Positions 13,572 through 41,221 of a DNA stretch of 59,749 nucleotides are shown here, piece by piece. The position numbers were made by a program, and so were the translations under genes. Source of the stretch: a virus; the UHGV virus genome UHGV-0185078, one strand, 5' to 3'. Every line of letters starts with the position of its first letter. The stretch's first letter is position 1. The notes under the pieces are model-generated. The model did no database searches. It was not told the origin of the DNA and saw only the letters and a program-made list of their open reading frames with translations.

Positions 13572-13700
13572 TTGGCTGTCAATCCTGATTTACAAAATCT
13601 TTACATATGGATCATTGTAAAAAGCATGTTAAGGGGTATGCTTTACTTCGTAACCAGTTGGTTACATCCGCTTAACAAATCCATATATGGAGATTTTCCT

Positions 13701-14408
13701 ATGTCTGACATGACTCTTTTACCTACTAATCTCGGTGGCGACGGTTTCGGCGGTGAAGCTGGTGCGGCTGGTATCGGTGGCGCGATCGGTGGCTTAATTG
13801 GTTCCTGGATCGGTAATGGTTGGGGTGGCAATGGTGGTTGGGGTGGTCGCGGTAACTTCGCTGGCCCGGTGGAAGTGCAAGCTTCTGTTGACACCAACGC
13901 AATTCTGCAAGCTATCAACAACGGTACTCTTCAGACCATTCAGGGGCAGAACGGTACTAACCTGACTGTTGAGCGCTCCGCTGCTTCTACCTATAACGGC
14001 ATCACTCAGCAGAACACTCAGAACATGCTGGCTTCCGTTCAGGGCTTTGCTGGTCTGAACACGCAAATTCAGGGTGGCACCAGCCAAGTGCTCGCGGCTC
14101 TGTGTAGCAACGAAGCGGCTAACATTACCCGTTCTTTCCAGGCCCAGTTAGCAGCCGAGAAGTGTTGCTGCGAAACCAACCTGAACATCGAGCGTCAAGC
14201 TGAAGCTACCCGTGCGCTAATCCGTGACCAGCACGCACAGGCGCAAGCAGTTCTGATCTGTGACCTGAAATCTCAGTTGCAGGAAGCTCGCTTTGCAAAC
14301 TCTCAGTTGGCACAAACGGCTGGTCTTACTTGTAAGATCAATCAGGTTGAGCAGTTAGTTAACTTTAAACTGCCAACTCCTCCAACTCCTCCGACTGGCT
14401 GCTGCTAA
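13701..14408 (+). CDS. glycine-zipper / Cys-cluster protein of unknown function (possible fiber-associated adhesin)
   Basis: ATG 13701 after GGAGA RBS; N-terminal GGDGFGGEAGAAGIGGAIGGLIGSWIGNGWGGNGGWGG, Gln/Asn/Thr-rich middle, CCC motif and C-terminal PTPPTPPTGCC. Confidence 0.55.
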   Translation: MSDMTLLPTNLGGDGFGGEAGAAGIGGAIGGLIGSWIGNGWGGNGGWGGRGNFAGPVEVQASVDTNAILQAINNGTLQTIQGQNGTNLTVERSAASTYNGITQQNTQNMLASVQGFAGLNTQIQGGTSQVLAALCSNEAANITRSFQAQLAAEKCCCETNLNIERQAEATRALIRDQHAQAQAVLICDLKSQLQEARFANSQLAQTAGLTCKINQVEQLVNFKLPTPPTPPTGCC

Positions 14409-15676: not shown

Positions 15677-15880
15677 ATGTGTGGTAATACTAACCGTTGC
15701 TGTCTAGGCAGTCCTGCAACACAAGCAGGTATACTTCAGGGGCAATTGGCTCAAGCGGCGTGTAATTGCAAAACTTTTCAACCAGTAGCCCCAACTCCTG
15801 TTTTTGTGAATGCTTTTGCACCGCCTGTTTTCAATACTTTTGGCGTATACCCATACGGTGCTTTCTTTCGTATATTCTAA
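15677..15880 (+). CDS. small Cys-rich hypothetical protein
   Basis: 67 aa, AGGAGG RBS; MCGNTNRCC...ACNC; last gene of the rightward unit before a bidirectional terminator. Confidence 0.45.
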   Translation: MCGNTNRCCLGSPATQAGILQGQLAQAACNCKTFQPVAPTPVFVNAFAPPVFNTFGVYPYGAFFRIF

Positions 15881-15887
15881 GAAGAGA

Positions 15888-15913
15888 AAAGGGGGCAAAC
15901 GCCCCCTTTCTTT
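15888..15913. terminator. bidirectional terminator at the convergence of rightward and leftward units
   Basis: aaagggggc-aaac-gcccccttt perfect hairpin with A-run upstream and T-run downstream. Confidence 0.65.
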
Positions 15914-16860: not shown

Positions 16861-17154
16861 CTAGCCCCCAAAAGCACCCCTATGATCAAGGGTTCTAATG
16901 CGCTGCTCCAGCCAACGTGCGTTCTTTTCAAAATGTTTATTGGTACGCGCTGCTTTGCACGCATCAATAATACCTAACTCACATCCAAGCTGCGTTTGTC
17001 CCATCACGTAAGAATGGGTTAACATGCTGGATACAAGATCTTCACATTGTAACTTAATAGGATGGTCTTGGCATAGTTTCTTTGCTGCATCTTTTAAATC
17101 CACAGCTTGGACACCAGGCGCTATCAGCAAAGTTACGAGTAATAAACGTTTCAT
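16861..17154 (-). CDS. small secreted protein (signal peptide, 4 Cys)
   Basis: 97 aa, MKRLLLVTLLIAPGVQA signal-peptide-like N-terminus. Confidence 0.45.
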   Translation of the reverse strand: MKRLLLVTLLIAPGVQAVDLKDAAKKLCQDHPIKLQCEDLVSSMLTHSYVMGQTQLGCELGIIDACKAARTNKHFEKNARWLEQRIRTLDHRGAFGG

Positions 17155-17438
17155 TATGCTTTCCCTTTACGGCATAAGGCTTGAAGTTCCAGAAGCGCAT
17201 CAATGTCTTCCTGTGGAGTTACACCAACGTGAATTGGATATTTAGCACGGCATTCGTAGCCAACGTCAACAGTGTGGTTAATGTAGCCGTAAACACATCC
17301 ACCAATAACAGTGAAGATAAGCGCAACAATCATTGTAAGGTATTTACCTTGTTTGCGTTCTTCATTTTGTTTATTAAGCTGACGGTTAAGTTCCACCGCG
17401 TCAATTTTACCTTTATTGTAATCGTCTACTAAGCTCAT
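17154..17438 (-). CDS. membrane-anchored hypothetical protein
   Basis: Start set to ATG 17438 (AGGAGA RBS 7 nt upstream) rather than the TTG at 17510; one central hydrophobic helix. Confidence 0.45.
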   Translation of the reverse strand: MSLVDDYNKGKIDAVELNRQLNKQNEERKQGKYLTMIVALIFTVIGGCVYGYINHTVDVGYECRAKYPIHVGVTPQEDIDALLELQALCRKGKA

Positions 17439-17502
17439 TTTGCATCTCCTCTTGTTGTATGCATATATTAAAACAGACCAGCGAATGGTCTGCAAGTAGA
17501 AT

Positions 17503-19488
17503 TTAGGCATATCCCATGTCTTCGAGATACTTCTCTGCTTTAGCTATATAAGCATCATAATCTATGTCGTCCGGTATTTTATCCGGTAGCGTCATGATTG
17601 GGACACCTCCCGCGCTACCAGCTACACGGTTGCCCGAGTTAGCATAAATTATTTCGGGAGTTTCTTCATTGGTGCTTAAATACCAGCGTACAACCTTACC
17701 CAAAAATTCGCCATTCCATACCGCGCCACCTTTCACCGCACGTAGGATAATGAATTTTCTAATATCGTTGCAATTGCGTATAGTACGAGAAACAGGCGTA
17801 CCGTGGGCCAGGCATTCGCATACAGCTTCCATGATAATTTCACCAGTACAGTTCTTTTGAAGTCCTGTCTTAGCAAACCAGCCTTTACGTTTAACTTCAA
17901 TGTTACCTTCTGCATCAGGTTCTTTGACAGCTACATAGTTGTTAACGTTCGCACTATATAGCTTGTCATAATAAGTGGATTCCATTTCAAAACCTGTGAC
18001 GGATTCCCACCACTTGATCATGTTATCAACGAAGTCTTGCATGTGGTCAGGATACTTAACCACAATACCATCGGTATTTGCTGAAATTACTTTAACACCG
18101 TTCAGCTCAAATGCTTCAATAAGCATTAACAGTGATAGTTGCCCTGTGATAGTTACCTGTATCAATAATTGCGGCGCGTACAGTACGGACCACATGGACC
18201 CTAACTTACCGAACGATCCGTTGATTACGATCTTCAGCGTGTTGGCTGTGTTCTTGTCCCCTGAGTGCTTAGCTGCAATACGGCGATCTACAATACTTTT
18301 ATAAACACGAAGGAACGCTGGTCCCAACTGCTCAGGGTATAATCCCTGATTAAGAATAATTGAAGGGTAATAGGACGTTACGTCAATGTCCCGCTTCTTA
18401 ATACCGGGCTCTTTACCGTGACCAGCACACTCTTCGGAGCTGTGCAAACCGCCAATACCCATACGGTAGACACCGTCCGCAATCTTGATTTCAAGACCTG
18501 TTAACGCTGGAGGCAGGCTAACGCCACCGTTATCGCTAACAATAAAGCGGCAGTCCCGAACAATATCCAAAACACTGTTCATCAGAGGTGTTTGAAAACG
18601 AATAAAGTCCGGTATGTTATACGCATACTTTGTTCCAGGATAAACTTGTGGACGCTGCGGACGCACACCAGTTAACGCTTGAATTTCGTGTTTAATTACG
18701 TCTTCTGCAATCTGTGCATCAGACCGTGAACGCAGATCCACACCGTATTCTTTCGACATAATTTCACGAAGGTGCAAAGGCTCTTGCAATGCAATAAAAC
18801 ATTCTTCCGTCTGTACAAGGTCGTTAATACAGTACCAGCGTACAATTAACATCTGGTCCTGCGTCAACATTGTATTTGGCTTGAACGGTAAATCCTGCAT
18901 ACGGCGAGTATGTACACGTCCGCCATATTGTTTCAAACCACCGGACCCAGGCAGCACTTCCATGATATCAATGTGGTTAACGTTCTGCATACGCTTGAGA
19001 CGGTAACTCTTCAATACATCAGAAGGACGCCAGTCTTCAACGATTATTTTATCGGTCGCGTCTTTAAGCTGCGCATTAGAACAGCCGTTAAGCGCAAGCG
19101 TAGCAATGGGCATATCGTACCCGTTACCGTTAAAACTCACGATAAGGAAGTTTGTCATTACCCAGTTAAGTAGCAAGCAATTCAAACTACAACCGTGATA
19201 CATTTCGAAGTAGACAACTTTCTTAGTTCGTACTCCGCGAAATGCAATTAAGAAATAGTTTGGATAACATTCGATATCGTATACAAGCGGTTCGCGGTTA
19301 ATCCATGCTTGAATAAGTTCATCCTGCGTATACAGGTTGTATTGGAAGTTCCGCGCTTCCTCAAGGTTAGGTAGATAATCCGGGCGCTCCCAAGTGCGCT
19401 CCGGCGGTAAACGTTTAACCTTTTCTTTCTTCACTTTTGGCTCAGGCGGTAAGTCCTGCCAAAAGAAACCAATAGCATCTGTCCGCAT
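17503..19488 (-). CDS. DNA polymerase, family B (with 3'-5' exonuclease domain)
   Basis: Exo I YDIE, Exo II NGNGYDMP, Exo III YCINDLV; pol motif A DVTSYYPSII, motif B KIVINGSFGKLG, motif C NTDGIVV; ATG 19488 overlaps upstream stop (TAATG). Confidence 0.85.
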   Translation of the reverse strand: MRTDAIGFFWQDLPPEPKVKKEKVKRLPPERTWERPDYLPNLEEARNFQYNLYTQDELIQAWINREPLVYDIECYPNYFLIAFRGVRTKKVVYFEMYHGCSLNCLLLNWVMTNFLIVSFNGNGYDMPIATLALNGCSNAQLKDATDKIIVEDWRPSDVLKSYRLKRMQNVNHIDIMEVLPGSGGLKQYGGRVHTRRMQDLPFKPNTMLTQDQMLIVRWYCINDLVQTEECFIALQEPLHLREIMSKEYGVDLRSRSDAQIAEDVIKHEIQALTGVRPQRPQVYPGTKYAYNIPDFIRFQTPLMNSVLDIVRDCRFIVSDNGGVSLPPALTGLEIKIADGVYRMGIGGLHSSEECAGHGKEPGIKKRDIDVTSYYPSIILNQGLYPEQLGPAFLRVYKSIVDRRIAAKHSGDKNTANTLKIVINGSFGKLGSMWSVLYAPQLLIQVTITGQLSLLMLIEAFELNGVKVISANTDGIVVKYPDHMQDFVDNMIKWWESVTGFEMESTYYDKLYSANVNNYVAVKEPDAEGNIEVKRKGWFAKTGLQKNCTGEIIMEAVCECLAHGTPVSRTIRNCNDIRKFIILRAVKGGAVWNGEFLGKVVRWYLSTNEETPEIIYANSGNRVAGSAGGVPIMTLPDKIPDDIDYDAYIAKAEKYLEDMGYA

Positions 19489-20441
19489 TAGACACGTTCT
19501 CCAATTAATACACCGCGAAGATTTTCCCCAAAGAATGCGCAAGGTTGCGGATACAAACTAAAGTCCGCAGTCTTAACCACATTTTCGAGCAATAGCAGGA
19601 TGTCAATATTGTACACTCCCGTTATTGTACGGTCCTGTAATACAAAGCTTGCACCTTCCGCATCATCATAGTGAGTACGGGCTAGACCGTTTTCAATATA
19701 TACACGCGGTCGGTCTTCTGCGAACGGTTTAATTTTATGCAAGCCTTCAAAAAGACCTGGATCAACAGGATGTGCATTGCATTGAACATTTAAAATACGA
19801 CGTATATCGGGCCACTCTGCATCAATAAGCTGTGTGCGCAACCAGCGACCTTCCGGATAATGAAACGTCACATTATTCTTGCTAACCTGAATATGTGTCG
19901 GGTTAGCCTTAATGCGCAGTATTTCTTTAATTGCAACGGAAGGTATTATGCAATCGATAGGGAACTGATTACCAAACCAGTATTCCGCAATAGTGACGTT
20001 ATTTGTAGCAAACAGGCTACCGTTATTAATCAGGATACCGCAAGCCCACGGACGGGAAGCATCGGAGCCTACAAACGGAGCAACGGACTTTACACCATGC
20101 ACGAAGCGAGCACCGTCTATTTCGTACAAATCACCTTCAGGGAATACGTGCGGCGTTTCTTTATCGATGCAGCGTATAGCAACACGAAACGGACCGGACT
20201 TGATATTAAGTTTACCGTTAGCCATCATTGTTAGCTGCACCGTTTCATCGCAGTTTGAAATAGCTTTAATCATAGGTCCAGCTTCGGGCTTGCAATCAAT
20301 ATCCAGCTCAATAGGGCTACCCAGTGCAATAACACCGTTAAAGCCCTGTACTTGTCCATCACGAATAAGAAAACTGGTAAGCCCTTCTACCAGTTCCTTT
20401 TTAGCGACGGAGCCTTGAACAAATTTAAGAGCGTCTAACAT
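19488..20441 (-). CDS. DNA polymerase sliding clamp (DnaN/beta-clamp-like)
   Basis: 317 aa; RWLRTQLIDAEWPDIRRIL resembles DnaN KLVDGRFPDYRRVLP; translationally coupled to the polymerase gene. Confidence 0.55.
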   Translation of the reverse strand: MLDALKFVQGSVAKKELVEGLTSFLIRDGQVQGFNGVIALGSPIELDIDCKPEAGPMIKAISNCDETVQLTMMANGKLNIKSGPFRVAIRCIDKETPHVFPEGDLYEIDGARFVHGVKSVAPFVGSDASRPWACGILINNGSLFATNNVTIAEYWFGNQFPIDCIIPSVAIKEILRIKANPTHIQVSKNNVTFHYPEGRWLRTQLIDAEWPDIRRILNVQCNAHPVDPGLFEGLHKIKPFAEDRPRVYIENGLARTHYDDAEGASFVLQDRTITGVYNIDILLLLENVVKTADFSLYPQPCAFFGENLRGVLIGERV

Positions 20442-20668
20442 TAGCGATCCTCGATTGCTCTAATTGTGGTTAAATCTAATTCACAGGTTGGAGGTAATCC
20501 ATAAAGCCCCATTTGTCTTCCTTGCGCATTAAACCATGTACCTGACGGATCCTGCCACTGCTTAGGTGTCTTGTGGAGAAATACTACTCTGTTTTCACCG
20601 TAATAATTAATTCTTACACCTGTGTGAGTATATTTACGTTTACCTTTTGGTCTTCTTAAGTTAGCCAT
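20441..20668 (-). CDS. hypothetical basic protein
   Basis: 75 aa ORF, start and stop overlap neighbours. Confidence 0.4.
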   Translation of the reverse strand: MANLRRPKGKRKYTHTGVRINYYGENRVVFLHKTPKQWQDPSGTWFNAQGRQMGLYGLPPTCELDLTTIRAIEDR

Positions 20669-21588
20669 CAGAACAACTCCATTACACGATCACGGAATGT
20701 GCCATCATGGGTAGCGTTAATGTTTGCAGCAATTACACCATACGCCCATAAGTTGAAGGCAGCACGTGATTCATAGATTGTTGATAAACGTTCGTAAGTG
20801 AAACCGTTTTGCTCAAGGTATTTAAGGACAGCGTCTTGTTCAATTTCAGTTAATGTTGAAACATGCTTACCAAAATGATGGCGGTCCGGTGACTTATCTG
20901 ATACGCGCATTGGCCCCCACGGAGGAGTAACCACACTTCCAAACGCTGCCGCTTGAATCCAGGAGGATGAGTCACAACTATACCACGGATAACGTTCCAT
21001 AATGGTTGTTGACGTAATACCAAACGCATGAAGTTTAATCTTAGCACGTCCGCTACCATCGCAAATATATTTGTCCCACATGCGGTCAAGCCAAGTCTTA
21101 AGCGTGTCCGTTGAACGTCCTACCATGCCCCCGATGGTGATATATTCGTAGTTCTTCATGTAGTATTCAAGATAGCGGAAGTCCTCCCCAAAGTGAAAGC
21201 ACGGTAACGGTTTAGCACCGCGTGCTTCCATTTCAAGCTGGTTACGGTAGGTCTGCAACGGATCACCGATACCATCGAGCACTGACGCCATTACAGCACC
21301 ATCTTCTACCCGCAAAATGTCTTTATTGCGCTTGATGTACTCGCAGTATTCAACAATATCAATGTGAGCACCCAAAGAGTGAGCGGAGAATGCACCAGAG
21401 TCGAGAAACACTTTAGCCCCATCCGCACGCATTTGATCAACATACTTCTGACGCCCAACGTAGTGGTACGATTCCAAAATATGGGGCAGGTTGCGAGTGA
21501 TATTTTTCTCATGCTCGGATAGCTTTTCGTAACGCTGCTGTCCAGGCATATATCCGTTAGTATACACAGCCGCCATGAATACATTCAT
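20668..21588 (-). CDS. dpdA: DpdA, tRNA-guanine transglycosylase-like DNA 7-deazaguanine transglycosylase
   Basis: 306 aa; TGT-like VFLDSGAFS motif; clustered with folE, queD, queC, queE. Confidence 0.75.
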   Translation of the reverse strand: MNVFMAAVYTNGYMPGQQRYEKLSEHEKNITRNLPHILESYHYVGRQKYVDQMRADGAKVFLDSGAFSAHSLGAHIDIVEYCEYIKRNKDILRVEDGAVMASVLDGIGDPLQTYRNQLEMEARGAKPLPCFHFGEDFRYLEYYMKNYEYITIGGMVGRSTDTLKTWLDRMWDKYICDGSGRAKIKLHAFGITSTTIMERYPWYSCDSSSWIQAAAFGSVVTPPWGPMRVSDKSPDRHHFGKHVSTLTEIEQDAVLKYLEQNGFTYERLSTIYESRAAFNLWAYGVIAANINATHDGTFRDRVMELF

Positions 21589-27783: not shown

Positions 27784-29763
27784 TTAGAACGGAACGTAAT
27801 CCGGATCATCTACTTGCACAGGATTAACCACATTGTTCACCGTTATGCCTTGCGTATTCTGTGAAACAATATCATCCCAGCTCACATCATCATTGTTATA
27901 GCTCGGACCTTCTGTTGTTCCATCCTGCCCGTATACTTTAACCTGAATAGCTTCGTCGTCCTGTGGTGCTTCAAACTTACCGAAACACGTACCATCATAA
28001 TCATAGTTCAATATCTCAGGCCATTTCTTATTGGTATGAACTTTGATGTATTTCGGTGTTTTAAGCATTGCAGCAACATCAAGGGCTTCTTCAATAGTTT
28101 GTGGTAAAGGAAGATGCGTCCTTTTCTTCCACCATGCAACCGCTTTACGACCTGCCCAGTCACCATGAAGCAGAGCTACCCATTCGCTGAATATTTTACT
28201 ACCGCAATAATAAGTCACCTTCATTGTTGGAGGTTTGGAGCTGTCATTGCGTTTAGTGTGCTTCGCATAAGTGACATGCGTAACTTTAAAGTCTTCAACT
28301 ACCGGAATGTCTTGCTTGATTAAAGCTTCGGTACTTGCTGCCTTTTTAAGTTTTGTCTGGAACTTAAACTCATGACCGCAAAATCCTTCTTTAACATAAT
28401 CCGTTCCACGTAGTCTGAATCCCTTCAAATACAATTGTTGAACTTGTTCCTGTGTAACGCTGTCCATAGGAATTGGTGCAAAGCCACCGCAATAGCGAGC
28501 AGATGCATGATTATACGACCCGCACACATCGCATTCTTTAACCGGAGCAGTACCAGCACCTTTTTCGCCCGGGCGCTTGGGTTTAACAGGGTCGTTAATA
28601 GGGCCCAAACGACGCGTATTACCGCTGAAATCCAGTACAAGGCAGTTCTGCTTAGGGCTTGCTGCAATAGCTTGCAAGCGACCTTCCTGCGTGGAAAGAT
28701 CAAAGCCCTCCGCATATACCGGACGCGTACCGCGACCCAACATCTGAACCCATAGCACTGCCGAGGCAGTGGGGCGAAGCATAATAATTAGATCAAGCAT
28801 CGGATGGTCGAACCCTGTGGTTAAGACGTTGTTGTTCGTCAGCGCTCGAAACTCTCCACGCTTGAATTTTTCAATAATTTCATCACGCTCTTTTGCATCA
28901 AGCTTTGAGTGAATACATCCGCAACTAATACCCATATCGTTCAGCATATCACACGCATCTTTAGCGTGTTCAATACCAGAACAAAATATAAGCCAGCTTT
29001 GACGGTCTTCACCACATTCAATGGCTTCCTCAAGTGCGCGGAGTGTTGCGTCGTCGCGGTTCACTGCACTTTGCAGCTCACTCTGAATAAACTCACCGCC
29101 GCGTTTACCTACCCCGTTGAGGTCCAGTTCCATCTTTGTACGCTTTGGCACAACCGGAAGCAAATAACCTTGCTCCAGGAACCAGTTAAAGGCTTCAGGA
29201 GTAGTCGCATCAAACGTTACTTTATCAAATAAAGCATCATCGTCTTCGTTTTCCTTAACAATTGAGCCGTAACCCAGTCGATAAGGTGTAGCGGTAAGAC
29301 CGATAATTTTTAAATACGGGTTAACTTCACGCAATGCTGCAAAGAACTTCTTATACATTGTTGCATCACGCGGACTAATAAGGTGCGCTTCATCCACAAA
29401 GATTAGATCAACCTTGCCGAACTTTTTAGGATGCTTAGCAACGGATGCAATCCCCGCAAATGTGATAAGATTATAAACTTCTTTACGCTTCAAACCTGCA
29501 CTGTAAATACCTGCTGGCGCTTCAGGCCAGACTTTCATTAATTTATCATAGTTTTGCGCGATCAACTCTTTGACGTGAGTTAACATCATTACGCGCTGGT
29601 TTGGATACCATTTATAAAGCAGATCGAGGAACCCCGCGATAACGAGCGATTTTCCTGTCCCTGTTGGTAACAGGATCAAAGGGTTCCCCGCGTTACCCTT
29701 TTCAGCATCAAAATAGCGGAATACGCTATAAACTGCTTCCTGTTGATAATCGCGGAGCTGCAT
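27784..29763 (-). CDS. SF2 DEAD/DEAH-box DNA helicase
   Basis: Motif I LLPTGTGKS, motif II FVDEAH, motif III LTATP, motif VI QMLGRGTR; start taken at ATG 29763 (track start is TTG). Confidence 0.85.
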   Translation of the reverse strand: MQLRDYQQEAVYSVFRYFDAEKGNAGNPLILLPTGTGKSLVIAGFLDLLYKWYPNQRVMMLTHVKELIAQNYDKLMKVWPEAPAGIYSAGLKRKEVYNLITFAGIASVAKHPKKFGKVDLIFVDEAHLISPRDATMYKKFFAALREVNPYLKIIGLTATPYRLGYGSIVKENEDDDALFDKVTFDATTPEAFNWFLEQGYLLPVVPKRTKMELDLNGVGKRGGEFIQSELQSAVNRDDATLRALEEAIECGEDRQSWLIFCSGIEHAKDACDMLNDMGISCGCIHSKLDAKERDEIIEKFKRGEFRALTNNNVLTTGFDHPMLDLIIMLRPTASAVLWVQMLGRGTRPVYAEGFDLSTQEGRLQAIAASPKQNCLVLDFSGNTRRLGPINDPVKPKRPGEKGAGTAPVKECDVCGSYNHASARYCGGFAPIPMDSVTQEQVQQLYLKGFRLRGTDYVKEGFCGHEFKFQTKLKKAASTEALIKQDIPVVEDFKVTHVTYAKHTKRNDSSKPPTMKVTYYCGSKIFSEWVALLHGDWAGRKAVAWWKKRTHLPLPQTIEEALDVAAMLKTPKYIKVHTNKKWPEILNYDYDGTCFGKFEAPQDDEAIQVKVYGQDGTTEGPSYNNDDVSWDDIVSQNTQGITVNNVVNPVQVDDPDYVPF

Positions 29764-29765
29764 AA

Positions 29766-30674
29766 TCAATCTTTCCCGTAATAGTTAGCTACTTGATAGT
29801 TTTGACAACCAACTTTTTGACCCTGAGTATCTACTGCAACGGAATGGAAATTGCAATACCATGTTCCATCATCTTTTGGCTCAAGAAATTGACATGTGCG
29901 ACAGTTTACTTCCGGCATAGTTTTACGCCAGCACAATGAGGAGTGGTCGCACCATTTGCATTCGAAGAAGGTAGAGTCTTTGAATGCACGGTCAGGAATA
30001 TCCGTAGCAATAGCAATCTGCACACCACGATCAATATACATGTCCGCAGTGACCGGATCAAATGGAATAATTTCTGCGTAAACTTCATCATCGTTCTTGT
30101 TTACAGCAAGATATAACGCTGCGCCAAGTCCAAGCTTTCGCATGTACACGTTCATTTGCACATAGTGCTCAGGTTTAGCTTCTTTGACACCTTTAGCTTT
30201 CAGCTTCTTGAAAGACTTATCGTTGTGGGTCTTCATTTCAGTAAGCACAGGCATCCCAGGCTGAACGTCCGGACAACCTATAACCACACCATCGCAGGAA
30301 CCTCCAAAGTGTCCACCCGCTTCACTGATACGGAACTGGTGTCCGTTTTCATCCTGCTGGTAGACCTGCATACCTGCCGCAAGAAGCATAGCAATGAAAC
30401 GCGCTTCTTCCAGATGTCCGCGGTTAAATAGGCGGAGCTGGCGTCCATCAAATTCTTTACGAGTAGCCCAGCGATACCCGTAGAACAGCTTGCGAGCACA
30501 TTGTTGTCCAATAAGGGAAGCACCTAAGTGACTGCGATTCCCGCTTTCAGGACGATATGCGTCTTCAATTGTGGGAATAACTACGCCGAGATATTTACGG
30601 TAAGTCCCACCCTGATCTTTTTGCACACCGTCATTGATCGCTTGAAGTGTTTTTTCTGCAATATAAATAGCCAT
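29766..30674 (-). CDS. PD-(D/E)XK exonuclease with C-terminal Cys cluster (RecB/Cas4-like)
   Basis: GSCDGVV...LTEMKT D/ExK core; CKWCDHSSLC...CRTCQF...WYC cysteine cluster. Confidence 0.6.
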   Translation of the reverse strand: MAIYIAEKTLQAINDGVQKDQGGTYRKYLGVVIPTIEDAYRPESGNRSHLGASLIGQQCARKLFYGYRWATRKEFDGRQLRLFNRGHLEEARFIAMLLAAGMQVYQQDENGHQFRISEAGGHFGGSCDGVVIGCPDVQPGMPVLTEMKTHNDKSFKKLKAKGVKEAKPEHYVQMNVYMRKLGLGAALYLAVNKNDDEVYAEIIPFDPVTADMYIDRGVQIAIATDIPDRAFKDSTFFECKWCDHSSLCWRKTMPEVNCRTCQFLEPKDDGTWYCNFHSVAVDTQGQKVGCQNYQVANYYGKD

Positions 30675-36164: not shown

Positions 36165-36629
36165 TTAAGAGTATGTACCTGTTTGAACAATGTGATTAAT
36201 AGCATGTGCTCTGAAGATTTCCCTAAAATCTTCAAGTTCTATTGTAGCACGAATTGGTTCCTTTTTAATATAATGATTGAACTCATTAATATCAAAGACG
36301 GAAGGGTTCATACATATAACAACTTTCCAACCTGCTCTAGGAATCTTATACATTAAGACTGGGATTTTATTACATTCCTGTGCAGACTTAACAGTTTGCT
36401 TCCACCATGTGTTAACAGCAAGAGTTGCATGGTTTTTGATCTCTACACAATATTGGCAAGTATTATCAATATCCGCACCACCTACAGCCGATTGATTTTG
36501 TCGCCTTTGTGCAATAGGTTTAGGTGGTAACGGTTTACCAATAAGCTTATGCACTTCCGCATAGATATCGTTGAAAAAATCGCAAGCTTCCCTTTCAGCT
36601 CTCTGACCTTTTTGCCGTATGTTGACCAT
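36165..36629 (-). CDS. PD-(D/E)XK-type nuclease-like protein
   Basis: GGADID...CVEIK motif; start placed at ATG 36629 (AAGGA RBS); 5' end overlaps HNH gene by 35 nt. Confidence 0.45.
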   Translation of the reverse strand: MVNIRQKGQRAEREACDFFNDIYAEVHKLIGKPLPPKPIAQRRQNQSAVGGADIDNTCQYCVEIKNHATLAVNTWWKQTVKSAQECNKIPVLMYKIPRAGWKVVICMNPSVFDINEFNHYIKKEPIRATIELEDFREIFRAHAINHIVQTGTYS

Positions 36630-37107
36630 GATTTGCAAATTCCTTATGTAATTCCAATCTTTTAGTTCTAACCCAAGCTTTAGCAGCTTGTAAACCTTCA
36701 GGTGTAAGTTCAAAATATTTTGATACCAAAACACCTTTTACATGTAAGTTTGCATAATAGACTTGAATGCCATTATGTTTTGTAATAGTTACGCACTTAA
36801 CACCAGTCTTTGAGTCTTTACGAATAACCATATTATAATTGTTCTGTGAACGATCAGCCAGTCTAAGATTTTCTATTCTGTTATCATCTCGAACTCCGTT
36901 AATATGATCAATTATCTTGTCTTCAGGAATATCACCATTGAAGTATTGCCATATTAACCTGTGAGCGAAATAAAATCTCTTATCAATTTTACCTTGAATG
37001 TAACCATCCTGACGTTTTGTACCAAATGGTCTTTTATTATAACCGTTTTTATTTCTTTGAAATAATTTGCCATCTATATAAATAAAGCGATCGTTTACAT
37101 TGATCAT
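36595..37107 (-). CDS. HNH homing endonuclease
   Basis: HRLIWQYFNGDIPEDKIIDHINGVRDDNRIENLRL HNH motif; start taken at ATG 37107. Confidence 0.75.
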   Translation of the reverse strand: MINVNDRFIYIDGKLFQRNKNGYNKRPFGTKRQDGYIQGKIDKRFYFAHRLIWQYFNGDIPEDKIIDHINGVRDDNRIENLRLADRSQNNYNMVIRKDSKTGVKCVTITKHNGIQVYYANLHVKGVLVSKYFELTPEGLQAAKAWVRTKRLELHKEFANHGQHTAKRSES

Positions 37108-37153
37108 GTTTACCTCCTTTATATGTATTTTAATATGAAGTAAAATCAATCTC

Positions 37154-37185
37154 AATAAAAAAGCGCAACGTTTTCACGCTGCGCT
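37154..37185 (-). terminator. rho-independent terminator closing the structured non-coding island
   Basis: Minus strand agcgcagcg-tgaaaa-cgttgcgct hairpin followed by tttttt. Confidence 0.6.
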
Positions 37186-37831: not shown

Positions 37832-38386
37832 TTAAGATTCTTTTCCGTGTCTAAGACTATACCCTAATTCATACTCTTTGGCAAATCTTACTTCAATAGC
37901 TTCATCTTTTGTAGGATAACTACCAAGATGCGTCCATTTTCCGTCAATACTTATAGCAGCTTGCCAAAGTCCTGTAGCAGGATTAAATTTTACGCCCGTA
38001 CATCCGGACGTGTTGTTAATGTTCATGCGTCTATTCTTTTGGTTATCTTGTCGTGAACTATTTTTTAAGTTCCATGGACGGTTATTCAACCCATTCCCGT
38101 CATCATGATCAATTTCTTCAGGTTCTTCATTATAGAGCATCTTCCAGATTATACGATGTGCCAGATAATGAAGACCGTCTAGACCAACAAGAATATAAAC
38201 GTTTCGGTCTTTAACAACAGCGCGACCAGCTTCTTTTCCTGCGAACTGAGAGTTGAATTTGGAACAAGCTCTTTGTGTTTTAAAGAACTTTAAAGGCGCT
38301 TTCTTCCATCTTAAAATGCCAGTCTCTTCATTATACTCAAAACGATCATGCAAATAGTCAAATGAAGGTAAAGGTCTAAATCTCAT
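37832..38386 (-). CDS. HNH homing endonuclease with AP2-like C-terminal domain
   Basis: HRIIWKMLYNEEPEEIDHDDGNGLNNRPWNLK HNH motif; C-terminal GVKFNPATGLWQAAISIDGKWTHLGSYPTKDEA AP2-like; start taken at ATG 38386. Confidence 0.75.
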   Translation of the reverse strand: MRFRPLPSFDYLHDRFEYNEETGILRWKKAPLKFFKTQRACSKFNSQFAGKEAGRAVVKDRNVYILVGLDGLHYLAHRIIWKMLYNEEPEEIDHDDGNGLNNRPWNLKNSSRQDNQKNRRMNINNTSGCTGVKFNPATGLWQAAISIDGKWTHLGSYPTKDEAIEVRFAKEYELGYSLRHGKES

Positions 38387-38627
38387 ATTATTACCTATAA
38401 CCAATATGTAAACCAGAAATAACCAGCTACGAAAATAGCACCCGCAAATAATTTTAAAAGCTCGAACATTGTCCCCTCCGTTAACTTTATGCTGTAAGTA
38501 TAGCAGGACTTGCGATGTATGCAACAACTTTAGACTTGAAATGCATCTATAAAATAGCACGATTTGCCTTTACCTCTGATCCGTCTAGCTGTACTATTAA
38601 CCCATAAACAGAGCGGAGGATTACAAA

Positions 38628-38857: not shown

Positions 38858-38883
38858 AAGGGCCTTTCGGCCCTTTATTTATT
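38858..38883. terminator. bidirectional terminator between small + gene and primase gene
   Basis: aaagggcc-tttc-ggcccttt perfect hairpin flanked by A and T runs. Confidence 0.7.
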
Positions 38884-41221
38884 CCTCTTCACCTAAGTTT
38901 GCCATAATTCCTTCAACATCTTGCGTAATGCGCCAAGCTGCCCCAGTAAATCCCAGTTTAATAGTCTCCTCCCGTGTTACCGGAACAAGGGCCCCCATAG
39001 CAACCATTTCCTTGATCGTAGACTCGATCGCTGCGGACAATCCGTGGTGATAGTTTTTAAACGCGGACTTACTTGCAAGACGCGTAGTAATATCCCCCCG
39101 CGTGATAATACCTTCTTTACGTAGATCTACACGTTTAACTTTCACCCAATCTTTAGTTAGATAATTCACACAAACCTGGCACATAGTACGGATACGAGCT
39201 TCGTCATTAGTACCAATACCCCCGCTATGCCATTCCTTCATAATGATATCCTGTCCATGGCGCACAAAGTCCAAGGCCCATTGAACATGATAGGTCTGCA
39301 CAACTGGATTGATCCAATTTTCTCCCACAGCTAACAGGGCGGATAGACGTAATACCTTCAGGTGTGCACGGTTCCATGGCTGACGGATTGCTTCATCTTT
39401 GGTTGCGTTAATATTACGGTCGCATTCATCGTTAAACTGATCACATAATGCTTCAGCATCCGGACTAAACTGCACTTCAATACTTTGATGCTTTGCCATT
39501 GCGACTAAGGTGTGGTTAACAAGATGGCACACCATATCCCGCAAATGCTGATCCATTGTAGTCTGCTGGTTCTTGTTTAAAGGCGGTCGATCCCCTTCAT
39601 AGCGGACAACATGGAAACGGGATAAGAAACCATCCTCCATCATTTCACGGGTTAATGCTTCAAAGAACGTATCCGGTGTCGTTTCGCCCATGATGCTATA
39701 TGCCACACCTTGTTGAGCTTCCGTATTATTAGCCTTATCAGAATAAGACATACCACCAACAATAGACATCTGACCGGACTTTTGATAAACATCGGTAAGG
39801 TCATTCTTGAAGCTTTGCATTGGTGAACCTGCTGGTGCCGTAGCCATTGCTTTAATAATCTTACCAAACTCACCGTTCAAGTTGATAAAAGATTGTTTGT
39901 CCGCAAAAGATTTACGCAGTGCGGAGCCGGAAGCGCATCGGTCAAAAGATACAAAGCTATGAATCTGCGGGAACGGTTCCTGAAGCTGGCTAACTATATT
40001 AGATAGCCCACTGTTCAACGTTTCTTTACCAACACCAGAACGAGCAATAAGGACGAAATATCCATTAAGACCAGATTGCGGAATCTGCCAGACCTTCCCG
40101 CATACCCCAGCCATAAAGCCTAGCGCTGTCACAATAGAAATTTCTTTCACTGGTCGGACGGATGCTTTGTAGATGTACTTCGCAAGCTCCCCAGCAAGCC
40201 CCGGCGGCCAGTCAATAGCGGTTGCATCAATAGATGTACTTTCTGCAACTACGGTCTGCCCCTGAGTTGTTTCAACAGTTACGGGCATTTCCGCTACCTG
40301 CTGCATTGCACTGTGTGCAGCTTGCATACGGGCAGCATAATCCCGCGCCAGCGCAGCTACGTTTTCCTGGGCAATGCGCTCACGCTCCATGCGTCCGCGA
40401 CACATACGCAAGCAACGGTCAATATGAACATTGTTCTTATTAGCCTTCTCACGTTTGCCCAGTGCACTGTAACGGAACAGACGACGGCATTGCTCATTAC
40501 TTTCCGTGTAAAATGCATACATAGAAATAAGGGCAAGGTCTGCTTCAGACTGGGAAGGGAAACCCATTTCAACCCATTCACCATTGAATAACCGTGAATA
40601 CTTATCGCCGTTATCTGCTTCAAGTGCGCGCTGATGAATAGTTGCATCATCTTCTACCGGATCTTTTTCTACCAGTTCAATTTCATATGTCTTGCGCTGA
40701 AGATCAATTTCATTCACAAGCATAGTAAGGTAATGATCACGTTCGGCAACTGATTTATTGTAGACAGGATTGCCCGTGCAGATAATAAAACGCTCCTGAC
40801 TATAAACCTCGACACCATCACGTCGACGACCTTTACCGATGTTACCTCTTAACCACAGGTGAACACCTAAGCCTGAGCGACTTACTTCGGTGTAAGTATC
40901 GAACGCAGTCATGATCTGTTCGAAGCGGCGCAACTGTTCCGGCGTCGTGTGCTTCTTGGGATCCGGTTCATTGGTTGCGTTCTTCACATCCAGGTCGATG
41001 CAGGTGAACGGGTCTTGTGCAGTAAGCACGAATCCAATATAAGGTTTATTGAAATGAGCGGCGCAACCTTTGGCAGCTTCAAACGTCATAAGCATATCCG
41101 GATCGGTAACGTCCGCCGCCATCAAACGTCCAATATCGCTATCCCATACCAACGGCTTTTTATCCGCATCGGCGACCGCCCATTGTGGGAAAGCTTTAAT
41201 TTCAGCGGGAAACAGTTCCAT
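38879..41221 (-). CDS. DNA primase (AEP/prim-pol-like N-terminus) fused to P-loop helicase domain
   Basis: 780 aa; N-terminal GLGVHLWLRG-type primase signature; Walker A-like ARSGVGKET in the second half. Confidence 0.6.
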   Translation of the reverse strand: MELFPAEIKAFPQWAVADADKKPLVWDSDIGRLMAADVTDPDMLMTFEAAKGCAAHFNKPYIGFVLTAQDPFTCIDLDVKNATNEPDPKKHTTPEQLRRFEQIMTAFDTYTEVSRSGLGVHLWLRGNIGKGRRRDGVEVYSQERFIICTGNPVYNKSVAERDHYLTMLVNEIDLQRKTYEIELVEKDPVEDDATIHQRALEADNGDKYSRLFNGEWVEMGFPSQSEADLALISMYAFYTESNEQCRRLFRYSALGKREKANKNNVHIDRCLRMCRGRMERERIAQENVAALARDYAARMQAAHSAMQQVAEMPVTVETTQGQTVVAESTSIDATAIDWPPGLAGELAKYIYKASVRPVKEISIVTALGFMAGVCGKVWQIPQSGLNGYFVLIARSGVGKETLNSGLSNIVSQLQEPFPQIHSFVSFDRCASGSALRKSFADKQSFINLNGEFGKIIKAMATAPAGSPMQSFKNDLTDVYQKSGQMSIVGGMSYSDKANNTEAQQGVAYSIMGETTPDTFFEALTREMMEDGFLSRFHVVRYEGDRPPLNKNQQTTMDQHLRDMVCHLVNHTLVAMAKHQSIEVQFSPDAEALCDQFNDECDRNINATKDEAIRQPWNRAHLKVLRLSALLAVGENWINPVVQTYHVQWALDFVRHGQDIIMKEWHSGGIGTNDEARIRTMCQVCVNYLTKDWVKVKRVDLRKEGIITRGDITTRLASKSAFKNYHHGLSAAIESTIKEMVAMGALVPVTREETIKLGFTGAAWRITQDVEGIMANLGEEE

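Follow-up and report, generated by a model that had tools for sequence, protein, structure and literature searches.

A DnaN-type sliding clamp encoded next to a family-B DNA polymerase in a Seuratvirus-like coliphage genome, with PolB and DpdA as candidate clients

The Queuovirinae phages 9g, CAjan and Vid5 (ORF30/ORF29) and the BASEL Seuratvirus phages encode a beta subunit, or processivity factor, together with a family-B DNA polymerase (PolB). These proteins are orthologs, at 53-100% identity, of those encoded by the gene pair analysed here in the virus genome UHGV-0185078, a stretch of 59,749 nucleotides (nt) hereafter called the window. The order of the DNA transglycosylase gene dpdA, the clamp gene and polB, as well as the overlap between genes, are alike in those phages and in the window, and nothing substantive differs. 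In the Vid5 publication the ortholog of the clamp (53% identical), encoded beside PolB, is described as homologous to Pol III beta, with an HHpred probability of 100% (PMC6266253). The clamp and PolB pairing is thus already known: it is an annotated, widespread phage module and is ordinary as such.

Outside of phages, Pol II of Escherichia coli is a family-B polymerase that uses the beta clamp (PMC11139829). The phage clamp shares with beta its three-domain fold and several recognizable stretches, with DASRPW, ATNN, WPDIRRIL and IGERV/IGMR of the phage protein corresponding to DVRYYL, ATDG, FPDYRRVL and MPMRL of beta. In both systems the family-B polymerase carries a terminal aliphatic-G-hydrophobic-F peptide, QLGLF in Pol II and AIGFF or ALGLF in the phage polymerases. 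Nevertheless, the phage clamp has 317 amino acids (aa) versus 366 for beta, with 14-17% identity, and the phage PolB motif, which is N-terminal and has no Gln, precedes an invariant Trp. Scans of phage open reading frames (ORFs) detected no cognate loader. Furthermore, Pol II is a repair enzyme, whereas the phage PolB is a replicase.

Phages T4 and RB69 also encode a clamp, gp45, and a family-B replicase, gp43, which inserts a terminal peptide into a hydrophobic pocket (PMC3201878, PMC7544198). However, gp45 forms a PCNA-like trimer of two-domain subunits and has a dedicated loader, gp44/62, and the polymerase motif is C-terminal, in contrast with the three-domain clamp of the window, for which no loader was detected. 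Lastly, PhiKZ Rhc (RNase H-clamp) and the herpesvirus proteins UL42 and UL44 are processivity factors derived from clamps, and they assist a family-B polymerase without any clamp loader (PMC13648687, PMC3201878). They contact DNA directly as single or open subunits; those of herpesviruses are basic, and Rhc is fused to an RNase H domain. Unlike them, the window clamp is a full-length, acidic DnaN-like chain.

Identity and distribution of the clamp and the polymerase

The features of the two genes used in the following analyses are:

17503-19488, minus strand: family-B DNA polymerase of the NTDG subgroup with a 3'-5' exonuclease domain, 661 aa (PHROG 1252, E 6e-229)
18067-18078, minus strand: PolB motif C, N471-T472-D473-G474, with NTDG replacing the usual DTDS; invariant in the alignment
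19488-20441, minus strand: sliding-clamp gene, 317 aa, three DnaN-type domains; ATG start, stop codon at 19488-19490 (PHROG 947)
19491-19511, minus strand: clamp C-terminus VLIGERV, residues 311-317 (family consensus AIIGMRx); equivalent of E. coli beta V360-L366, VVMPMRL
19791-19829, minus strand: DnaN signature stretch LIDAEWPDIRRIL, clamp residues 205-217, matched to E. coli beta by phmmer and hhalign
19995-20009, minus strand: ATNNV, clamp residues 145-149; equivalent of E. coli beta A171-T172-D173-G174-H175, the strand of pocket subsite I

The product of 19488-20441 is a three-domain beta (DnaN) sliding-clamp homolog made of a single 317-aa chain. It belongs to PHROG 947, 'DNA polymerase processivity factor' (E 5.4e-82), with residues 1-317 aligned to positions 12-365 of the 368-position profile. 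Its AlphaFold2 (AF2) model has a predicted local distance difference test score (pLDDT) of 91.7 and a predicted template modelling score (pTM) of 0.86, and a Foldseek search of the PDB with this model returned bacterial DnaN proteins for all of the top 50 matches (best E 6e-21; query-based template modelling score, TMq, 0.77-0.82; 355-371 aligned columns). An earlier, sequence-only reading of the window had noted DnaN-like motifs in the ORF upstream of the polymerase and had named the three-domain clamp fold as the property to verify. Both points were borne out: the AF2 model and its matches have this fold, and the motif LIDAEWPDIRRIL is identical at 8 of 13 positions to residues 236-248 of E. 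coli beta.

Profile comparisons agree with the structural matches. We aligned 48 clamp homologs of 46-88% identity; in hmmsearch, the clamp family profile detected the DnaN proteins of D. radiodurans and Rickettsia among PDB sequences (E 4.7e-5 to 4.8e-4), and in hhalign, columns 1-317 of the clamp profile aligned with columns 10-366 of E. coli DnaN (probability 86.8%, E 4.9e-7). A single-sequence phmmer comparison of the clamp with E. coli beta gave an E value of 0.01. A clamp of the T4 gp45/PCNA type, with two domains and a subunit of ~230-260 aa, was ruled out, as the protein has 317 residues and three domains and the top 50 structural matches are three-domain DnaN proteins. The clamp is a divergent phage lineage of the DnaN superfamily and not a canonical DnaN.

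The most conserved parts of the clamp family are those that match beta's peptide-binding pocket. The stretch LIDAEWPDIRRIL pairs with LVDGRFPDYRRVL of E. coli beta (residues 236-248), which includes the pocket residues P242, R246 and V247 in the phmmer alignment, and W210 and P211 are invariant in the family. In the ATNNV stretch, A145, N147 and N148 show no variation, and conservation of T146 reaches 90% or more. The hhalign alignment places the C-termini of the phage clamp and of E. coli beta in one register; the E. coli segment closes the peptide-binding pocket, and R309, G310 and G314 are invariant in the phage family. With the pocket residues of E. coli beta taken as listed in a review (PMC11139829), the aligned equivalents, given as clamp = beta, are R130=R152, T146=T172, P211=P242, R215=R246, I216=V247, V311=V360, I313=M362 and R316=R365. 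The isoelectric point (pI) of the clamp is 5.56, close to the family median of 5.6. Acidic values are associated with ring clamps and basic ones with the known non-ring factors (PMC3201878), and by this criterion the calculated pI would place the phage protein with the ring clamps.

The downstream gene indeed codes for a family-B polymerase, as the sequence-only reading had proposed. The ORF called mechanically spans 17503-19542 on the minus strand from a TTG codon, but the ATG at 19488 is the start conserved in all relatives and yields a protein of 661 aa. In addition to its PHROG 1252 assignment, it matches S. solfataricus PolB1 and E. coli Pol II in the PDB by sequence, and Foldseek searches with its AF2 model (pLDDT 91.2) returned archaeal PolB, Pol alpha and E. 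coli Pol II (E 1e-16 to 1e-13). The Exo I-III motifs and motifs A, B and C are conserved (DIECY, NGNGYD, YCINDL, DVTSYYPSI, KIVINGSFGK and SANTDG), and D71/E73, D367/D369 and N471-T472-D473-G474 are invariant in the alignment. The NTDG signature defines the 'PolIIphages' subgroup (Kazlauskas and Venclovas 2011, PMC3201878). None of the Pfam polymerase-domain models matched the phage polymerase. The clamp, the polymerase and the dpdA product fall below or outside Pfam, and hence their family assignment rests on PHROGs, profiles and fold.

The combination of a phage-encoded bacterial-type clamp with a B-family polymerase had been considered uncommon in the sequence-only reading, which was not supported by our searches. 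Using tblastn, we found the clamp in 362 of 50,697 phage records from many genera, including phages of Pseudomonas, Escherichia, Salmonella, Stenotrophomonas, Vibrio, Xanthomonas, Rhizobium and Acinetobacter, where the usual annotation is clamp, beta subunit or processivity factor. An exhaustive profile search collected 2,953 clamp representatives at 50% identity (the best 150 listed being mostly 310-335 aa long), and polB lies downstream of the clamp in 74 of 80 loci analysed below. The relatives are annotated as 'DNA polymerase beta subunit', 'replicative clamp' or 'processivity factor' beside 'DNA polymerase'. We found no experimental work on this phage clamp family in the searchable literature. 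The present analyses confirm at the level of structure a clamp family that is missed by Pfam yet widespread in phages of Proteobacteria, which is of modest value. The points that may be new are a candidate tether at the N-terminus of PolB, and a clamp-binding-like C-terminus of DpdA combined with the recurrent linkage of dpdA and clamp genes.

The clamp-polB junction

The junction between the two genes is as follows:

19486-19502, minus strand: clamp/polB junction, with GGAGA at 19498-19502, a 9-nt spacer and TAATG at 19486-19490

It reads ...GGAGAACGTGTCTAATGCGG... / GGAGAACGTGTCTAATG, and the TAA of the clamp (19490-19488) and the ATG of the polymerase (19488-19486) share one base. The stop/start overlap reported in the sequence-only reading can therefore be read directly in TAATG, with GGAGA located 9 nt upstream of the polymerase ATG. 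An identical clamp/polB overlap is annotated in phage VogelGryff, which is 95% identical.

We used the clamp profile to retrieve 80 IMG/VR loci, with 45-53% clamp identity, and examined how far this arrangement is conserved in them. In 74 of them polB is directly downstream of the clamp gene on the same strand, which makes it the most constant neighbour. The 74 junctions fall into the following classes:

1-nt overlap (TAATG): 24 loci
4-nt overlap (ATGA): 18 loci
11-nt overlap: 2 loci
0-1 nt gap: 5 loci
50-1224 nt insert: 25 loci

The genes thus overlap in 44 of the 74 loci, and overlap or are separated by 0-1 nt in 49 of them, at ~50% protein identity. Adjacency of clamp and polB persists at 20-27% clamp identity in Lokivirus, Septimatrevirus and Rosemountvirus. 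Among the distant junctions, that of Loki is a 4-nt overlap, those of Halfdan and of Rosemountvirus PA13076 are 1-nt overlaps, and in Samson the genes are separated by 11 nt. What stands out is that the clamp-polB junction is kept across distant relatives; the overlap itself is ordinary for this genome. Translational coupling of clamp and polB is plausible and, based on these sequence comparisons, would be evolutionarily persistent.

Five of the clamp/polB inserts were scanned with Pfam. They contain a GIY-YIG homing endonuclease (locus L018), a small SLOG-family (YspA-like) protein (L052) and a transposase-type zinc ribbon protein (L053); the L008 insert gave a weak, sub-threshold HNH match only, and no Pfam match was found for that of L058. 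By eye, the inserts of L028, L069 and L077 look like the L052 protein. The junction seems to be an insertion hotspot.

Candidate clients of the clamp and proposed mechanism

The C-terminus of the polymerase, where the sequence-only reading had suggested searching for a clamp-binding motif, has none: it ends in ...AEKYLEDMGYA, a conserved, confidently modelled helix. A candidate was identified at the protein's opposite end:

19453-19479, minus strand: PolB residues 4-12, DAIGFFWQD, candidate clamp-binding motif on a disordered N-terminal tail, based on conservation and pLDDT

This candidate tether peptide, MRTDAIGFFWQDL, conforms to a motif M-R-x-D-x-x-G-[F/L/M/I]-F-W-x-D, in which G7, F9, W10 and D12 are invariant in 45 homologs of 53-92% identity. 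All 74 loci carry the motif, which is followed by a variable Pro/Lys-rich linker; residues 1-20 of the window protein have pLDDT values of 50-55. The core is AIGFF here and ALGLF in many relatives (family [A/S]-[I/L/A]-G-[F/L/M]-F), which fits positions 2-5 of the Q-aliphatic-x-[L/M]-[F/L] motif. It resembles QLGLF of Pol II and AMSLF of the delta subunit, which has no Gln, and the clamp-binding motif of Hda similarly sits in a disordered N-terminus (PMC11139829). In more distant clamp-linked polymerases, too, the N-terminus combines a hydrophobic-acidic motif with a Lys-rich linker (MFFDDLDL..., MSFLFDSF..., MTLFNAESL...). By contrast, the tail is missing in four NTDG polymerases with no adjacent clamp gene, those of FoX4, RcExplorer, Geezett and Shewanella phage 1/44, in which Exo I begins within 6-45 residues of the start. 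Searches of the complete FoX4 and Shewanella 1/44 genomes with hidden Markov models found no clamp, while the positive controls were detected. Together, these comparisons make the PolB N-terminal tail a probable clamp tether.

Among the polymerases compared, only distant relatives, Samson and Halfdan, carry a clamp-binding-like motif at or near the C-terminus. In the Xanthomonas phage Samson (locus L082; 3375-4538 and 4550-6622), PolB ends in ...KKAKNGELAFF, and PolB of the Escherichia phage Halfdan (L084; 4448-6583) harbours ...KKAKRPDLFEDL... (...PDLFEDL...) near its C-terminus. At its N-terminus the Samson clamp is extended by a Lys/Arg-rich segment, and its C-terminal ...SDDIPF is like the tip of SSB.

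The second candidate client is encoded upstream of the clamp:

20668-21588, minus strand: dpdA, 7-deazaguanine DNA transglycosylase, 306 aa (PHROG 887, E 8e-96; annotated as DpdA in VogelGryff)
20671-20685, minus strand: DpdA C-terminal VMELF-COOH, residues 302-306, candidate clamp-binding motif, based on tail conservation

The C-terminal peptide of the window DpdA is GTFRDRVMELF. Pol II and Pol IV likewise carry their clamp-binding motif at the extreme C-terminus. Several relatives have canonical Q-type tails (QMELF, QNRLF, QGKLF, QPGLF, QQGLF), and annotated DpdA relatives end in QQGLFV, EQRLF, QPGLF or QMELF. In Streptococcus phage MS1, DpdA ends in KQNRLF and is followed by DnaN; in Bacillus phage Flasso, DpdA ends in QGKLF and Pol III beta is encoded two ORFs later. 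The terminal L and F are invariant across an alignment of DpdA proteins from phages of Proteobacteria and Firmicutes with 28-40% identity. A search of PDB sequences with the DpdA profile gave no match.

We analysed the linkage of DpdA tails with clamp genes in three sets of loci with 6-kb flanks; the members of each set share ancestry, which bears on all the tail counts. In set 1, the IMG/VR loci of Proteobacteria phages, dpdA is located upstream of, and on the same strand as, the clamp gene in all 78 loci examined, and each of the 78 tails has L[F/Y] within the last six residues, mostly as [I/V]QELF. Set 2 comprises 65 Firmicutes-type dpdA loci whose downstream sequence extends for 3 kb or more, where the clamp is a canonical DnaN: a same-strand DnaN-like ORF follows dpdA in all 65, and DpdA ends in L[F/I/W] in 63. 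Set 3 gathers diverse DpdA proteins ranked on an actinophage query, 13 with a downstream clamp and 53 clamp-less. Hydrophobic clamp-binding-like tails (IMELF, QIGLF, NRMF, GFGL, GLGL and similar) were found in 13 of 13 clamp-linked loci, whereas such tails are lacking in 51 of the 53 clamp-less DpdAs. Fisher's exact test gave p = 4e-4 with a strict tail definition fixed beforehand; the value of p = 5e-12 obtained with a broad definition is optimistic, as the definition was widened after seeing the tails and the clamp-less tails were not re-scored. There is thus reasonably good comparative evidence for a predicted docking of DpdA on the clamp, and no mention of such a link was found in the searchable literature on phage DpdA.

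Eukaryotic DNMT1 is bound to PCNA by a PCNA-interacting protein (PIP) box and is thus a clamp-tethered DNA-modifying enzyme. The logic suggested for DpdA is similar in that both are post-replicative modifiers with a short clamp-binding peptide, such that modification would follow the fork. The two cases differ in clamp, motif and chemistry, DpdA performing base exchange and not methylation, and the DpdA link is deduced from gene order and tail conservation.

One DpdA (L268, IMGVR_UViG_3300020045_012053) has a canonical QQKLF tail, but no clamp was detected within its flanks (6 kb upstream and ~5.8 kb downstream); its partner may be the beta clamp of the host or one encoded in another part of its own genome. 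We also considered the primase (38879-41221, minus strand) as a third client, since it starts with MELF, the last four residues of DpdA. This start is not conserved in 120 homologs, where the conserved part is [F/L/I]-P-x-E, and we attribute the resemblance to coincidence.

A mechanism can be proposed for the module. Ribosomes finishing the clamp would reinitiate on polB via the overlap, so that both proteins would be made together. The clamp would form a head-to-tail dimeric ring like beta, as suggested by its complete three-domain fold and acidic pI. This ring would tether the polymerase to DNA, with the disordered PolB N-terminal motif [A/S]-aliphatic-G-[F/L/M]-F-W (AIGFFW) docking in a predicted, conserved hydrophobic pocket between clamp domains II and III, whose counterpart in E. 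coli beta binds QLGLF of Pol II. The second pocket of the ring may hold DpdA by its ...VMELF end, which would place the deazaguanine-inserting enzyme on freshly made duplex DNA. The ring may be loaded by the host DnaX complex or assembled around DNA together with the polymerase. We are rather confident in the overall interpretation, a beta-type clamp in a dpdA-orf75-clamp-polB run with reinitiation at the overlap and a ring tethering the replicative PolB. For the more specific proposal of a two-client hub, in which PolB would be bound by its N-terminal GFFW and DpdA by its C-terminal ...VMELF/QxxLF, coupling DNA hypermodification to the replication fork, we see the chances as evenly balanced. 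If DpdA does ride the clamp, this would account for the ability of an enzyme that exchanges bases after replication to act on a large fraction of its target sites while the phage is replicating rapidly, and the terminal LF of DpdA would be a handle for tuning anti-restriction DNA modification in engineered phages.

Several observations weigh against this interpretation. The structural DnaN matches share only 14-17% identity with the phage clamp; Pfam detects only the central domain, PF02767, at 22.3 bits for a cutoff of 27, and the N-terminal and C-terminal DNA_pol3_beta models have no match in the clamp. The pocket residues L155, G174, H175 and R176 of E. coli beta differ in the phage protein. 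The PolB motif is N-terminal and has no Gln at position 1, and it could bind another partner, such as the helicase, primase or SSB. PHROG scans of the 20 replication-module ORFs of at least 100 aa, several of which have no known function, detected no clamp loader, which is awkward for a closed ring; the same scans did find helicase, primase, Cas4 exonuclease, SSB, Sak4, ligase, RNase H, RusA and HNH proteins. As to the junction, ~10 of 25 same-strand junctions (~40%) overlap in the replication module of VogelGryff, and overlap alone is therefore no proof of regulated coupling.

The frequency of overlaps raises the possibility that the clamp/polB overlap reflects the ordinary compact packing of phage genes, with no regulatory role, the two genes being merely co-transcribed. 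The dpdA/orf75, orf75/clamp and polB/orf118 junctions overlap as well, the inserts found in 25 of 74 loci indicate that direct adjacency is dispensable, and the GGAGA before the ATG could allow independent initiation on polB. Nevertheless, near-contiguity in 49 of 74 loci at ~50% protein identity, and overlaps in Lokivirus and Rosemountvirus at 20-27%, amount to more persistence than neutral packing predicts, and we regard packing alone as the less likely explanation, albeit one to be taken seriously.

Joint production of both proteins, to which the tight overlap is suited, would equally serve a clamp-like protein that does not encircle DNA and acts as a stoichiometric accessory subunit binding the polymerase and duplex DNA, in the manner of UL42/UL44 or PhiKZ Rhc. 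Such a factor needs no loader, in line with the PHROG scans; the PhiKZ family-B polymerase uses a single clamp-derived subunit (PMC13648687), and it has been argued that loader-less viral clamps may be non-ring (PMC3201878). However, the known non-ring factors are basic, whereas the clamp family is acidic. In addition, the window clamp has no extra DNA-binding extension and retains the three domains along the full length of DnaN, which is exactly what a head-to-tail dimer needs. A non-encircling subunit thus appears improbable. Lastly, the clamp might serve mainly in DNA modification or host takeover, as a platform for DpdA only or as a decoy sequestering host beta-binding proteins. The dpdA-clamp linkage, the DpdA tail and the resemblance of the pocket to that of host beta would fit such a role. 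Nevertheless, the clamp-polB pair occurs with no adjacent dpdA in the Lokivirus, Septimatrevirus and Rosemountvirus loci examined, polB is the most constant neighbour of the clamp, and the family-wide PolB terminal motif tracks the presence of the clamp (two clamp-less genomes having been checked in full), which makes this possibility highly unlikely. We retain the ring clamp tethering PolB as the preferred interpretation.

Gene neighbourhood and other features of the genome

The window is a Seuratvirus-like (Queuovirinae) coliphage genome. The 4.6 kb around clamp and polB are 94-95% identical to Seuratvirus-type (Queuovirinae) siphophages, the close relatives being Aeromonas phage SD04, Cronobacter phage CSP1, the BASEL phages VogelGryff and KurtStettler, and slur01, and the size and layout of the window match a whole Seuratvirus-type genome. 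The plus strand holds the virion genes, and a leftward module for replication and deazaguanine modification occupies ~16-45 kb. Regions of positive GC skew (~1-16 kb and 46-56 kb) flank one of negative skew (~16-46 kb), which fits two opposed transcription blocks. No tRNA genes were found in the window (1-59749). At the end of the leftward block there is a strong hairpin followed by a T-run (15887-15910, minus strand). A promoter and terminator scan of 15.8-24.5 kb gave counts not above those of shuffled controls and thus no operon boundaries.

The clamp and polB belong to an unbroken chain of overlapping genes at 17154-21588 on the minus strand, in which the dpdA/orf75, orf75/clamp and clamp/polB overlaps are of 1 nt each and the polB/orf118 overlap is of 8 nt. 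Given this tight same-strand packing, dpdA, orf75, clamp and polB are probably co-transcribed. The remaining gene of this run is:

20441-20668, minus strand: orf75, 75 aa, function not known, basic N-terminus (PHROG 38388); 1-nt overlaps on both sides

It was seen only in the three closest IMG/VR loci (L002-L004) and in VogelGryff, and is thus a Seuratvirus-specific, genus-level insertion. As orf75 is restricted to Seuratvirus and has no Pfam match, it was rejected as a conserved part of the replisome.

Other ORFs of the window are worth mentioning. Two paralogous HNH endonuclease ORFs (PHROG 99), at 36595-37155 and 37832-38560 on the minus strand, are found in the replication module, one of them overlapping a RusA-like ORF; they probably code for homing endonucleases. 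A Gly-rich ORF (13572-14408, plus strand) harbours a CCCE stretch and ends in ...PTPPTPPTGCC, and near it, at the end of the tail-fibre region, lies a Cys-rich ORF of 67 aa (15677-15880, plus strand); both are of unusual composition. The C-terminal tip of E. coli SSB is DDDIPF. The superfamily 2 (SF2) helicase encoded at 27784-29769 on the minus strand ends in ...QVDDPDYVPF, an acidic tail with a final PF that is reminiscent of this tip, and by analogy it could be another short replisome interaction motif.

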